From Dehalococcoidia bacterium (lineage in GTDB: Bacteria > Chloroflexota > Dehalococcoidia > Lucifugimonadales > JADFKI01): a stretch of 64,000 nt of DNA. A program made the position numbers and the translations under genes. The notes beneath the pieces are model-generated. The model did no database searches and was not told where the DNA came from. It was given only the letters and a program-made list of their open reading frames with translations. Position 1 is the stretch's first letter, and every line of letters begins with the position of its first letter. This document shows positions 23,002 through 28,900 of this stretch, one piece after another. The stretch lies in contig OZ241333.1 of NCBI GenBank assembly GCA_965200085.1, positions 43,391-107,390 of the forward strand. The letters run 5' to 3'.

Positions 23002-23626
23002 TAGAACTGCTCCGAGTTGCTGGACTGGCGGGGGTGCCCGCGAGTTACGTCGGGATTATCAATAGCGTCGGGACCGCCAATCCCTCTTGTACCGCGGCGC
23101 CCGCCAATAAATCCTTGTCCGCCAATATGACCGTACCCGTCAAAAGCACGCTGTACGGCGGTTCTTCTTCGAGCGGGACGATCACAGAACTTGTGGTCTT
23201 GGGCGATGCAGGAAACAATTCTGCTAATAATATCTTCCGGCAGATCTTCAGCAGAATTTAGCCCTGAAGCACCGTTATCAAACAGCTACTGCATGTCCTT
23301 CCGCAAACTCTCGAGAGGTACCACAGCGTCAATATCGGTTAAATTTACCGGATGACCAATCGACACCATTGGATGTAACAGCACAACGGCCATCGTTAGA
23401 TACTGATAAATATAATCTACGTGGTCATCCGTAACTGTCGCTGTGGTATCATCTCCGAACAGGATGGCACTTAGGTTTTCACTGCGGCTCATATACTCAA
23501 AGAGTACGAGGGCAGAGCTTGTCAGCTGTTGACTAGGCGAGCGGCAACAGCCATCAGTAAGCGGTTCATTCGAACTGACAAGATTGCCGTAATTGTCGTA
23601 CTTGTCCCTCGCCCAAAAACTGCCGT

Positions 23627-23746
23627 CAATATAGCTGTATTTACATCAGCGTCTCCAATAAATCCACAGACAGCGCATTCGTATCATTTCTTGTTCCTAG
23701 CCTGCTTACCCACGCTGCCGCAGACATTGTATCGTTGGCTAGTGTG
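23627..23746 (-). mobile_element. IS200/IS605 TnpB C-terminal relic
   Basis: Minus strand reads HTSQRYNVCGSVGKQARNKK*YECAVCGFIGDADVNTAI: zinc finger plus RuvC-III motif with an internal stop. Confidence 0.75.
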
Positions 23747-23780
23747 CTCTCAGGTATATAATTCCCTAATATTATTACAA

Positions 23781-24560
23781 TTACGGCTTATAGGCTTTAA
23801 TGTTCGCGCTGTGCACGCGCGACGCCCAATCCTCTTTGCCTTTCCACGGCTTAGAGTCCATAATTTGTATGTCTTCAAGTCCCGCGTCCGCCATTCTGCC
23901 CATATACACATCCTGCGGCTCTGCGCCGGATAGGCAGGAAACCCAGTTCTCTGCGTTCTCGGTTGCATGCGCCGGAAGTGGCGCCGTAAGTATCATGTCC
24001 GATATGAACATCCTACCGCCCGGCTTCAGAATGCGGTATGCCTCGCGGAACACTGCGTCCTTGTCCGGTGCGAGGTTTATGACACAGTTGGAGATAATCA
24101 CATCTACGGAGCCGGCTTGGATAGGGGTATTCTCCATTTCGGCTAGATGAAACTCCACATTGCCCATATTAAGATTATCGGCGTTCTTACGCGCAAGATT
24201 TATCATGTCAGGCGTCATATCGATGCCGATAACCTTGCCTTCAGTTCCAACGGCTTTTGCGGCAATGAAGCAGTCGATGCCTCCCCCGCTGCCGAAGTCC
24301 ACGACCGTCTCGCCGGGGTTAAGATCGCCGATCGCGGTGGGATTTCCACAGCCGGCGGACGCAAGCAGCGCTTCGCTCGGCAGCCCTACCATCTGCTCCA
24401 CCTCATAAAGCTGATTGCGTGTGGTTGGGGCTGGAGCACAGCAGCCATCCTCATTGTCAGATTGGGCACTGTCGGTGTCGGATTGGGCGGATTGGGCTAG
24501 GTTAGCGTAACGGTCGCGTACCAGCTCTTTCACGTCGGTGTCTGTGTAGTTTGTTACCAT
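23781..24560 (-). CDS. arsM: Arsenite methyltransferase
   Basis: V..RY, GCC, GCGNP, VDFGSGGGIDC, IGIDMT.DM, VDVIISNCVINLAPDK, WVSCLSGA. Confidence 0.9.
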   Translation of the reverse strand: MVTNYTDTDVKELVRDRYANLAQSAQSDTDSAQSDNEDGCCAPAPTTRNQLYEVEQMVGLPSEALLASAGCGNPTAIGDLNPGETVVDFGSGGGIDCFIAAKAVGTEGKVIGIDMTPDMINLARKNADNLNMGNVEFHLAEMENTPIQAGSVDVIISNCVINLAPDKDAVFREAYRILKPGGRMFISDMILTAPLPAHATENAENWVSCLSGAEPQDVYMGRMADAGLEDIQIMDSKPWKGKEDWASRVHSANIKAYKP

Positions 24561-24732
24561 TATTCCTTCCCTCTATTCCTTCTTGTTGTGTTCCAGTTGG
24601 TAGTATATCAGCTTGAATCATACAACTTGTTTGTTCTTGTGCGTTAATGATGCAGCATAGACTTCAAACCGTTGCAATGCGCCGCAGTCTGCCGGATGGG
24701 CGTCTAAATCTAATATGTTTAGGGCTAACAGG

Positions 24733-25713
24733 TCATCTCTGACGCAACTCAGCGGTAAACTGAGTAGTAACCGTTGTGCTTGGGGTTGCGACCGCAACCG
24801 ATCCGTATAGCGGTCAACGGCGTTTCCAAATATCCACGAGGGTATCGCCGTCCGCATCGCTGACACCCCATATATGCAGGTGGATTCTTATCTTGTCGTA
24901 CACGGTGCGCTCTCCCTGCGCAGCGTCGAGGTCGCGGTAGGCTTCGACGCTTACATCCATCCAGTCGAGAGGGATATTTTCCTCGCTGGCGATGCGTTCG
25001 ATCATGTTGACGGCGCAAGCGGATATGCCGGACAGGAAGAGTTCACCGGCGCCGATCTCCTCGCCGCCGGAGTCGTCAGCAACCCAATGGTGATTGCGCG
25101 CATTGCATATTGAGCGTCCGAGCGTGCCGGTGCTGTAACTCCGCACTTTGTAAGCTAATACTATATCTGTCATTTCAGACTCCTTGAGGGTGTCATAATA
25201 GCTCCCATCGTCTGCATCCGACCGCGCCTGAGCTATCAGCTGTCTGGGTGTCACCACCCATAGCAGCCGTTCATCGCCCTGTGCGCTCAGGTCCAGATTA
25301 CAAAGCGCACCCTTTTTTAGCTTGATGAACCCTGTTGTTTGCTCAGTAAGTATGTACGAAACGATACTGCTTAGCTGCGGTTCGTGTCCGATTGCCATGA
25401 GGTTAGTCTCAGAGGGATAGACTGCCGTTAAGTTTTGCATCAGAGACGGATGCGCGCCCGGGACAAGCGCATCTGAGATAGTTAGGCGCGGCGGAGCGTT
25501 CAAGCCCTGTCGGACTATCTCTGCCGTCTGCACCGCTCGCACAAGCGGACTGGTGATTATCACATCCGGCGCTATGCCGATTGCGTTCATTCCTTCGACT
25601 TCACGGCGTATTCTGTCGGCTCCCTTGTCGGTGAGGGGGCGTTGACGGTCATCAGGATATTTGCCATCGTCGCGGTCTTCTGCAATGCCATGCCTGAGTA
25701 TATAGAGGTTCAT
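24733..25713 (-). CDS. SixA-like phosphohistidine phosphatase fused to an OsmC-like selenoprotein domain (UGA at 24816-24814 read as Sec); internal start at 25173
   Basis: RHG...IGHEP SixA motifs; OsmC-like GAGELFLSGISACA...WKRR-UGA-PLYGSVAVATP; frame stays open 26 codons past the UGA; SECIS-like hairpin follows. Confidence 0.8.
24784..24799 (-). promoter_or_regulatory. Putative bacterial SECIS apical hairpin
   Basis: GGTTGC-GGTC-GCAACC starting after a 14-nt spacer downstream of the UGA; loop begins with G. Confidence 0.65.
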
Positions 25714-25945
25714 TGCGAAAATCCTTTATCAGCAGCCCAACGCTCCCGATATTAGACAGGCTGCTGTCTGCATCTCGGGCGGGCATTTCTACTTCTCTTA
25801 TCGCGTTGTCGCGGCGCTATCCAAGACCCTATGAGCCAATGCCTATAAGGGATTACACCACTTGCAATCGAACACCTGCCGTAACCTCAATGCACCTATA
25901 TGACACATTGAGGTTGACACTGTGCTGCTAACTCAGGTTAATGCC

Positions 25946-28900
25946 CTATTTGACTCTCCGCACGCTGATTGTGGCTTGAATGTCGTTCACCTTTAAGGTA
26001 TGAGTGTAGACGTCATCGGTAGGCGGCATGTTCAGCAGCTCGCGCGACAGGGTTTCCTGTCGGATGTAATCGCTGTGCTCTGCGATTACGGCATCGAGCG
26101 CGGGGCTGCTTTCATAGTATGTAACTATGTGATCGGCTATATCAAAGTCTGCAGAGCGGCGTATGTTCTGTATGCCGTGTACAAGTTCGCGGGCGTTGCC
26201 TTCAAGGCGCAACGCCTCGCTGACATCCGTGCTGACGGCAACTGTGTAGCCTCCGTCGTTCGACACCGAGTACCCATCTTTGTCCAGCGTTTCCACCAGC
26301 ACTTCTTCCGGCTCCAGCACAACACCGTTAAGCGCTATCGGATTACCTGAACGCACCTGATGATGCACTTCCGAGGGGTTCGACGCGTTCAGAGCGGCCA
26401 CTATACTGCGCAATTCTGCGCCGTACTTAGGCCCAAGCAGCCGCAGATTAGGCTGCACCTTGTATTCCAAAACATCGCCTTCATCAGTTACCGGCGTAAT
26501 CTGTTTTACATTCAGCTCGTCCTTCACCTGAGGGGCAATCTGCTCCAGCATCGCTGCTTCGTTCGCCGAGCGCAGACGAACCAGTGCCTCCTCCAGCGGC
26601 TGTCTGACCTTTAAGCCTGCTTTGCTGCGGGCTGCGCGTCCCATACTGGACAAGCGCATCGCCAGGCGTGTTGCGTCCGAAAGGCGCTCGTCAATCAGCG
26701 ATTCGTCTGCCACCGGATAATCTTCAAGATGGATGCTTTCTTTCGCGTTGGCAAGCGCGCCGGTAAGGTTGCGGTACATCTGCTCGGTTACGAAGGGCAT
26801 GACCGGCGCTATGAGTTTTACAAGCGTGAGCAGGCAGTCGTACAGCGTAGCATAAGCGCCGTGCTTATCGGCGTCCGCGTTCTCAGCTAATATGCCTGCT
26901 TTCCAGAAGCGGCGGCGGCTGCGGCGCACATACCAGTTGGACAGATACTCGATGAACCCTTCCACATGGCGCGCCGCTCTATCAGGCTCGAAGTTCTCGA
27001 AGGCATCCGTTACCTCTGCCACGAGCTGGTTGAGTTCTGAGAGAATCCAGCGGTCAAGCTCTGCGCGCTCGGACACAGGCGGCGGGGCTGCCGCAGCGTC
27101 ATACCGGTCTATGTTTGCGTAGGTAACGAAGAACGAATAGACATTCCAAAGCGGAATGATGAATCGGCGGCGCACTTCGTCCGCAGAGCGGAACCCGAAG
27201 TTGATATTGAGCGCCGGGTTCTGGCGCAGGAACACCCAGCGCATCGCATCCACGCCCATGCGTTCCGCCGCATCCTCGAACCAGATTGCATTGCCCTTGC
27301 TCTTGTGCATCTCCTCGCCGTTGGCGTCACGCATGAGTGCGTAGCTGAAGACGGAATGGAAGGGCGCAGTGTTTTCCAAGACGGTGCTCATCGTCAGCAG
27401 TGAATAGAACCAGTTGCGGAACTGCCCGGGGAAACTTTCCGAAATCCAGTCGGCGGGGAACCACTTGCGCCAGTAATTTTTGTCATGGCGATAAGCGATA
27501 GTGGAAAATGAGACGATACCGGCGTCCAGCCATGCGTTGCCCACATCCTCGATGCGACTCACGGGCACTCCGCACTCATCGCAGCGGATTTTCACGGCGT
27601 CAACCCACGGGCGATGCGGCGAATTGCCCTCGAATTCACTCCACCCCTCGACTGCGCGCTCTTGAAGCTCGGTTTCGCTGCCGACGACATCAAACCAGCC
27701 GCAGCCGCACTTGTATATGGGCAGGGCTAAGCCGTAGTAGCGCTTCTTGGAAATCATCCAGTCGTCCATATTGCGCAGCCAGTCGAGTTCGCGCGCATAG
27801 CCGAATTCGGGAATCCAACGGATGTCGTCCACCACATCCATAATCTGGTAACGCAGGCTGTCTGCTTTCTCGCCTGCCGTCAGTTCCTCGCGCGGCTTGT
27901 CGTGTTTCTCGCCCATGCTGATGAACCATTCGTCCACCAGCCTGAAAACCAGCTCGGAGTCGCAGCGCCAGCAGACCGGATAGCGATGTGAGTAGCGTTC
28001 GAGATTATAGAAGACATTCTTTGCCTTGAGGCTGTCGTATATGGCATCGTTCACATCATAGACATTCCTGCCGGTGAGCCAGTCGAAGCCTTCCACAAAG
28101 TCCCCATACTCGTCGAGAGGAGCGATGGCGGGTATGTCGTTCTCGCTGCCTAGCGCAAAGTCCTCTTTACCTGCGCCGGGTGCGATATGCACAACGCCTG
28201 TGCCTTCACTCTCGCTGACCTCGTCCCATCCGACAACGCGATGCTCCACACCGTCCTGCGCTGTCAGTTCTGCGAAAGGAGCACGGTAACGCAGCCCTAT
28301 TAGTTCGCTCGCCGGCACCTCGCCCAGCACTTCGTAGCTGCCCTTGAGCACCGGCTCGCACTCCTTGATGAGATACAGAAATTCGCCGTCCTGCTGAACT
28401 TTGATGTATGTCTTTTCAGGGTGTACGGCGGCGGCGGCGTTTGCGGTTAAGGTCCAAGGGGTGGTCGTCCAGACCAACAGGGACTCTTGCGTTTCCGAGT
28501 CCAGCAGGGGGAACTTTATGAACAGACCCGGGTGAACTATCTCTTTATATCCTTCGGTTACGATTTCGTGTTCCGACAGCCCCGTGCCGCAGCGCGGGCA
28601 CCACGGCATTACATCGCGCCCCTCATAGAGCCAGCCTTTCTGGTGGCAAGTCTTCAGAAAGTGCCAAATGGTGTAGTTATTCTCGTCCGACTTAGTATGA
28701 TACGAATCGTCCCAATCCATCCAGTATCCGAGCCGTATGCTCTGCTGGGAGATGATGTCCGCAAAGCGATCTACGCGCTGCTTGCACAGGTCAACGAACT
28801 TATCTACACCGAACGCTTCTATGTCGCGCTTCGACTTGAAGCCAAGTTCCTTCTCCACCTCCACCTCGATCCACAGTCCTTGCCCGTCGAAGCCGTTCTG

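Follow-up and report, generated by a model that had tools for sequence, protein, structure and literature searches.

Where does the minus-strand gene at positions 24814 to 25713 of this stretch end, and what does its product become if the annotated stop is read through? The window analysed, meaning the whole stretch of 64,000 nucleotides from a Dehalococcoidia bacterium (assembly GCA_965200085.1, contig OZ241333.1), holds at 24814..25713 an open reading frame (ORF) of 299 amino acids that ends in ...DIWKRR at a TGA codon (24816..24814), and the public gene call ends the protein (P0003, 299 aa) at that TGA. A first-pass annotation had proposed that this UGA is a selenocysteine (Sec) codon in a gene joining a SixA phosphohistidine phosphatase to an OsmC/Ohr-type redox domain, directly upstream of the arsenite methyltransferase gene arsM. 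Reading the TGA as Sec (U) lets the frame run on as U-PLYGSVAVATPSTTVTTQFTAELRQR until it meets a second TGA (24735..24733), which gives a product of 326 aa; across the read-through site, after Arg299, the sequence is R-U-PLYGSVAVATPSTTVTTQFTAELR. The 26 additional residues are conserved and complete the OsmC/Ohr fold. The in-frame "stop" almost certainly encodes Sec at the second OsmC/Ohr active-site cysteine, and from sequence comparison the gene is a genuine OsmC/Ohr-superfamily selenoprotein gene, with Sec at the resolving-cysteine position, that gene callers truncate. We assign a probability of about 0.85 to the joint reading in which the product is an OsmC/Ohr-type two-cysteine redox enzyme with Sec in place of its second conserved cysteine, and in which the fusion to SixA and the neighbouring genes are features of one lineage.

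The UGA (24814..24816, minus strand) is residue 300 of the fusion and residue 120 of the OsmC-like domain, and its assignment to Sec is based upon the residue that homologues carry there and upon conservation of the codon. Standalone metagenome homologues (P0005, P0006 and P0008) have Cys at the TGA position (WKRRCPLYGSVATAT; WKRR-C-PLYGSVATAT). A HMMER scan of 1.84 billion representatives returned 322 clusters at E <= 0.001, and 148 of the best 150 were aligned by BLASTP. The TGA position was occupied by Cys in 51 of these 148 representatives and by another residue in 8; 36 proteins ended four or fewer residues before it, 32 of them exactly at domain residue 119, and the other 53 were fragments that fell short of the position. 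The proposed placement of the UGA after WKRR at the second OsmC/Ohr cysteine, the one in the C-P motif, was confirmed by the 51 representatives and the three standalone proteins. Sec forms appear to make up about four in ten of the informative family clusters, and Sec-containing OsmC/Ohr proteins are widespread in the Dehalococcoidia and also, judging by the truncation pattern, beyond them.

The codon was conserved with a single exception. TGA stood at the same codon in all 19 loci of the window's genus, with 26-27 conserved residues after it. Scanning one genome for each species yielded 80 loci, all from Dehalococcoidia, Chloroflexota/Chloroflexi or SAR202 metagenome-assembled genomes (MAGs), of which 79 had TGA and the remaining one (L100) had TGT, encoding Cys. 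With 17 of the 80 being the same places as genus loci, the two sets combined comprise 82 distinct loci, and 81 of these carry TGA. The motif U-P-[LI]-Y-G-[ST]-V-A-V-A was present in all 98 TGA-bearing locus rows (19 from the genus and 79 of the 80 at species level, or 81 distinct places), and the codons after the TGA vary synonymously at third positions across loci. An even sample of the order gave matches in 39 of 201 genomes, with exactly one TGA in all 38 near-full-length matches. Homologues thus pair Cys with Sec at a single site, as expected for the selenoprotein gene first proposed.

A palindrome, GGTTGC-GGTC-GCAACC at 24799..24784, lies exactly 14 nt past the TGA, and the corresponding RNA hairpin (GGUUGC-GGUC-GCAACC, 24784..24799, minus strand) is the candidate selenocysteine insertion sequence (SECIS), with its GU at positions 25-26 when the U of UGA is taken as position 1. 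The search window of bSECISearch is for a stem-loop at 16-37 nt. In an alignment of the 51 nt from the TGA, covering 80 sequences of which 69 were distinct, columns 18-24 formed a helix of seven pairs with columns 27-33, and 100% of the 483 cells were paired. Compensatory changes occurred at three of the seven stem pairs: 18-33 (GC in 63, GU in 5, CG in 1), 21-30 (CG in 41, UA in 27, UG in 1) and 24-27 (CG in 44, GC in 20, AU in 5). There were none in any slid control, and no shuffle equalled the covariation score. The loop bases G25 and U26 were invariant. Every variable stem position is a synonymous third codon position of S/T-V-A-V-A-T, residues that vary among the Cys forms, and the hairpin is lost in L100, the sole locus with a Cys codon. 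Covariation and the invariant GU loop bear out the proposal of a hairpin with bacterial SECIS geometry 14 nt downstream, and these comparisons support the view that it behaves as a SECIS. It presumably resembles the SECIS of Escherichia coli fdhF, likewise short and G+C-rich, just over ten nt past its UGA and with G-U in a four-base loop; the fdhF 5' arm also starts GGUUGC, with its GU at 23-24 as against 25-26 in the gene described here.

The Sec system sought in the genome proved complete. Matches above the curated cut-offs were found for selA (556 bits), selB (353 bits), selD (391 bits) and tRNA-Sec (66 bits, anticodon tca), and ARAGORN agreed on the last (tRNA-SeC). The conserved TGA position, the covarying hairpin and this machinery together indicate a Sec codon rather than a chance occurrence. 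The selD gene (G000:C1:1890531-1891454, where G000 is the window genome; about 1501-2424 of L010) has an in-frame TGA of its own, in ...SCAG-U-ASKF..., with a hairpin, GGCGCAG-GUG-CUGCGUC, 27 nt past it and GU in the loop, so that the organism's Sec pathway itself depends on Sec.

The OsmC/Ohr-like domain of 146 aa (24736..25173, minus strand), counted from an ancestral ATG at 25173..25171, was identified with Pfam, AlphaFold2 and Foldseek. Pfam placed OsmC at residues 219-310 of the 326-aa read-through product (42.1 bits, gathering score 27.5) and His_Phos_1 at residues 3-76. An AlphaFold2 model of the OsmC domain, from 22 sequences, had a mean pLDDT of 91, rising to 91-98 over residues 111-146, and contained a helix (121-129) and a strand (134-140) that both follow the Sec; the claim that the frame past the UGA completes the fold was upheld by this model. 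All of the listed Foldseek matches in the PDB were OsmC/Ohr-type or uncharacterised structural-genomics entries, the top ones including 1lql, 4mh4, 6mjn, 1ukk, 1n2f and 1qwi. In the alignment to Ohr 6mjn, Cys53 fell on the Cys of A-C-F and U120 on the Cys of V-C-P-Y-S. The conserved residues, in domain numbering, are Arg20, Glu44, Cys53 and Sec120; among the representatives Arg20 was found in 113 of 117, Glu or Asp at position 44 in 122 of 123, and Cys53 in 124 of 126. For XfOhr, the Xylella enzyme, the helix cysteine Cys61 is described as peroxidatic and activated by Arg19 and Glu51, and Cys125 as the resolving residue that forms the disulfide (PMC5962072). Based upon the alignment of Cys53 and U120 to Ohr and upon these roles, Sec occupies the resolving position.

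The window protein shares its fold, the Arg, the Glu, the helix Cys and the C-P-x-Y site with the Ohr/OsmC thiol peroxidases (XfOhr 1ZB8/4XX2, Ohr 6MJN, E. coli OsmC 1QWI). It differs from them in having Sec as the resolving residue, and the similarity is marginal (E = 0.004 to 1). On the conserved residues only, the enzyme is most likely a hydroperoxide reductase. In the proposed mechanism, SelB and Sec-tRNA would recognise the hairpin and Sec would be inserted; Arg20 and Glu44 would activate Cys53 in the manner of the Ohr catalytic triad, and Cys53 would attack the peroxide; the selenolate of Sec120 would resolve the sulfenic acid to a selenenylsulfide; and a dithiol donor, either a lipoyl protein or thioredoxin, would reduce the latter. 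Sec normally replaces the attacking residue, and a protein that keeps the attacking Cys and has Sec at the resolving site provides a natural experiment on selenium in peroxidase resolution and recycling. The chemistry expected from Ohr is that the second residue resolves Cp-SOH, after which a dithiol acts as reductant (PMC5962072).

Several observations weigh against the joint reading. Similarity to characterised Ohr/OsmC proteins is weak, with a best E of 0.004; none of the NCBIfam Ohr or OsmC equivalogs was matched, and at E <= 0.01 the only OsmC-type model was NF041052. Selenium incorporation and enzyme activity of OsmC(Sec) are predictions from sequence. Sec at the resolving instead of the attacking position is unusual, and Cys53 and Sec120 could have the opposite roles. 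The fold energy of the single hairpin sequence is unremarkable (z = -1.11, with 26 of 200 shuffles folding as well), and an Rfam scan of 24600-24900 at E <= 10 returned no match. Four of the seven stem pairs are invariant and lie at first and second codon positions of the conserved V-A-V-A-T, so the pairing could partly reflect constraint on the protein, and the shuffle statistics are inflated by relatedness of the sequences. Finally, two RNA libraries (X3 and X4) hold the stretch around the gene as contigs of 6.7-6.8 kb, which is not indicative of transcription.

Among known selenoproteins the closest comparison is with NF041052, the "OsmC-related (seleno)protein". Both belong to PF02566, have the two-cysteine OsmC fold, are bacterial selenoproteins by assignment and have a SECIS soon after the UGA. 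In NF041052 members, unlike the window protein, Sec is the first conserved cysteine (G-F-U-L-L-T-Q in three translated members), and a joint alignment with 19-23% identity placed the NF041052 U on Cys53 of the window protein and the second NF041052 Cys on its U120. The window protein scored 23.2 bits against the NF041052 cut-off of 95 and so falls outside that family. A search of 301 genomes of the phylum with the same model gave 15 matches above the cut-off in 14 genomes, with one TGA in 14 of those matches, and no match in the window genome. Because the NF041052 U aligns to Cys53 and the score is low, the window protein is, on present alignments, a clade distinct from NF041052 with Sec at the opposite active-site position. 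The catalogued OsmC-like selenoprotein, to which the model NF041052 corresponds, has the motif UxxT, is assigned to COG1765/PF02566, and is the sole OsmC-like entry in the available parts of the published tables (PMC1088965, PMC9312934, PMC13188914); as given in the available part of the first, an OsmC-like selenoprotein from marine metagenomes was described by Zhang, Fomenko and Gladyshev in 2005 (PMC1088965). No record of Sec at the C-P-x-Y cysteine was found in the published lists and literature searched, although paper supplements, including that of PMC13188914, and reference 64 of that paper may list more.

Public gene calls for these proteins are cut at the UGA. Databases consequently lack their second active-site residue as well as the final helix and strand of the fold, and the selenoproteomes of Dehalococcoidia, SAR202-type and sponge-associated MAGs included, are undercounted. 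A far broader proposal is that proteins with Sec at the resolving cysteine form an uncatalogued, widespread Ohr/OsmC class with a Cys-S-Se-Sec intermediate, recruited in one genus into a sixA-osmC-arsM unit and, where fused to SixA in one species, coupling selenol redox to phosphohistidine signalling or to ArsM recycling. We regard this whole chain as speculative and improbable. The SixA fusion, like the arsM neighbourhood, is lineage-specific on present evidence.

The other half of the fusion is a SixA-type phosphohistidine phosphatase domain (residues 1-165; 25219..25713, minus strand) with RHG and GHEP motifs. It scored 93.5 bits with NCBIfam TIGR00249 (cut-off 74.5) over model positions 1-154 of 154, and aligned over its full length to PDB 3f2i (7.7e-16) and to E. 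coli SixA 1ujb (1.4e-07). This half is intact, with both LRHG and GHEP present, and its phosphohistidine specificity is predicted from the sequence. A stop-free linker of 15 codons (25174..25218, minus strand) joins the two domains and is, by comparison with 17 other two-gene loci, the remnant of the sixA-osmC spacer; it holds a Shine-Dalgarno sequence, AAGGAG, at 25185..25180. The true stop codon of the selenoprotein gene is the TGA at 24733..24735 (minus strand), and relatives stop there or no more than 5 codons away, with TAG, TAA or TGA. The arsM gene (23781..24560, minus strand) lies 175 nt downstream, is identified by NF008823 (289.3 bits, cut-off 263) and has no in-frame TGA; its translation contains the cysteine motifs CC, GCGNP, SNCVINL and SCLSGA, which presumably hold the As(III)-binding cysteines. 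In the interval from arsM to ileS, a scan of 23600-26100 for promoters and terminators gave no prediction on the minus strand.

The fusion was found only in the window genome, whereas 17 of the 18 genus loci that have both genes keep the sixA stop and a spacer. In these 17 loci the sixA stop comes directly behind ...QLRALA or a short tail, and about 65-170 nt of spacer separate it from AAGGAGG and the osmC ATG. The window genome has no sixA stop, and its spacer has shrunk to 45 nt and stays in frame (RSDADDGSYYDTLKESE), with AAGGAG (25185..25180) kept six nt before the ancestral osmC ATG (25173..25171). From this comparison, the fusion would have arisen by recent loss of the sixA stop and most of the spacer. 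As sixA and osmC then share a reading frame, a SixA-OsmC(Sec) protein of 326 aa could be made; retention of the Shine-Dalgarno sequence and the ATG still allows an internal start, and the free 146-aa selenoprotein is probably still made by internal initiation. The SixA-OsmC(Sec) fusion of the first-pass annotation is real DNA in the window genome and absent from 17 of the 18 two-gene loci of the genus. The sixA-osmC spacers of eleven other loci (L024-L029, L034 and L036-L039) share a conserved box, TTGACAT...ACAGGATA, upstream of the osmC Shine-Dalgarno sequence, which is deleted in the window genome and may be a promoter or operator.

A possible alternative is that SixA-OsmC(Sec) is a dedicated bifunctional protein, either a phosphohistidine phosphatase gated by redox state or a reductant whose selenol recycles the ArsM disulfide, and that sixA-osmC-arsM is an arsenic-handling module. 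We consider it unlikely. In its favour, sixA adjoins osmC upstream in 18 of the 19 genus loci, arsM lies downstream of osmC in 10, and all three genes are on the same strand and tightly spaced in 9; the in-frame fusion is itself real DNA. Within the order sample arsM was found in 106 of the 201 genomes, and an arsM match accompanied the osmC match in 37 of 39 genomes as against 69 of the 162 with no osmC match, a comparison made by hand among related genomes that are not independent and confounded by kinship and genome size. A precedent for a Sec redox module on ArsM exists in the ArsM/AhpD-domain selenoprotein of NCBIfam and of the available part of a 2026 review, which, like the locus described here, links a small peroxidase-type Sec module to ArsM. 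As far as these sources describe it, that protein differs in having an AhpD fold that is fused to ArsM, and an ArsM that itself contains Sec (UxxG); here the fold is OsmC and the gene is separate. The window ArsM has no TGA and scored 182.4 with NF041537, against a cut-off of 510.

The distribution of the genes speaks against such a module. The fusion occurs in one of the 18 two-gene loci. Of the 80 species-level loci, 16 had sixA upstream and 9 had arsM downstream, all of them genus places, and at the 63 loci outside the genus neither sixA nor arsM was found within 4 kb (0 of 63). The flanking genes there are diverse (HpcH aldolase, MFS transporter, RidA-like and others), and Pfam searches of 10 flanking ORFs from 5 of the 63 revealed no shared partner. 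The closest OsmC(Sec) relative by identity (L043, 82%) adjoins an HpcH/HpaI aldolase gene with neither sixA nor arsM nearby, so gene context changes faster than sequence. Three genomes of the genus (G006, G018 and G010) keep sixA with arsM downstream and lack osmC: sixA is directly beside arsM in G006 (L130) and G018 (L042), and in G010 (L129, 1052-2371) an ORF of 439 aa with leucine-rich repeats lies between the two, at the place that osmC(Sec) occupies in sister genomes. Two further genomes, G195 and G211, have an osmC match and no arsM match. Where relatives such as G028 and G099 have both, the genes are usually far apart, at distances of about 58 kb to 2.3 Mb. From these comparisons the sixA and arsM neighbourhood is inherited synteny of one genus of sponge-associated Dehalococcoidia and not a family-wide partnership; a functional partnership of OsmC(Sec) with ArsM is possible by analogy. 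The pairing with arsM proposed from the window thus stands as synteny within the genus, in 10 of 19 loci, and does not extend to the 63 loci beyond it. Among the genomes of the order, ArsM-like paralogues with one in-frame TGA were seen in G164, G067, G076, G205, G072, G121, G034, G146, G198 and G127; none reaches the NF008823 cut-off, and they probably belong to the Sec-containing ArsM families that NCBIfam already lists.

Much less probable still is that the TGA is a true stop, leaving a truncated OsmC-like protein with no second Cys, or a pseudogene with residual similarity downstream. Public gene callers do end there (P0003 at 299 aa and the 32 representatives at residue 119), and the real terminator of the gene is also a TGA, so TGA does terminate in this organism. 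A stop is nevertheless contradicted by the conservation of the TGA and the following 26-27 codons in 81 of 82 distinct loci with synonymous third-position variation, by Cys at the position in homologues, by the covarying hairpin that follows, by the complete Sec machinery, and by the confident prediction of the tail as part of the fold.

An assembly or sequencing artefact, with the sixA stop really present, has an equally slight chance of explaining the fusion. Such an error would fit a fusion unique among 18 loci and a MAG made up of a single contig, and indel errors do occur in some kinds of long-read assembly. Over 23700-25950, however, Logan contigs from 4 runs in 3 studies showed 0 differences and 0 gaps, and one contig record (24977-25269) spans the junction; some of the matching runs may include the source of the window DNA. 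The SixA alignment also continues in frame to its normal end, ...PRQLIAQA. All sampled words of 23700-25950 were present in seven listed runs and a fraction of 0.93 in an eighth; the runs, from three studies, are labelled sponge metagenome, metagenome or with one of two coded hosts, which suggests a sponge-associated population.

An alternative genetic code with TGA as Trp or Gly was rejected, given that the gene itself terminates at a TGA and that Cys occupies the site in homologues.

Proteins with 2-4 tandem OsmC-like repeats were also observed in the family (P0128, of 714 aa, P0159, P0167, P0176, P0179, P0192, P0196, P0200, P0208, P0216 and P0251). Each aligned repeat has both cysteines, and the Arg and the Glu/Asp are present in nearly all.

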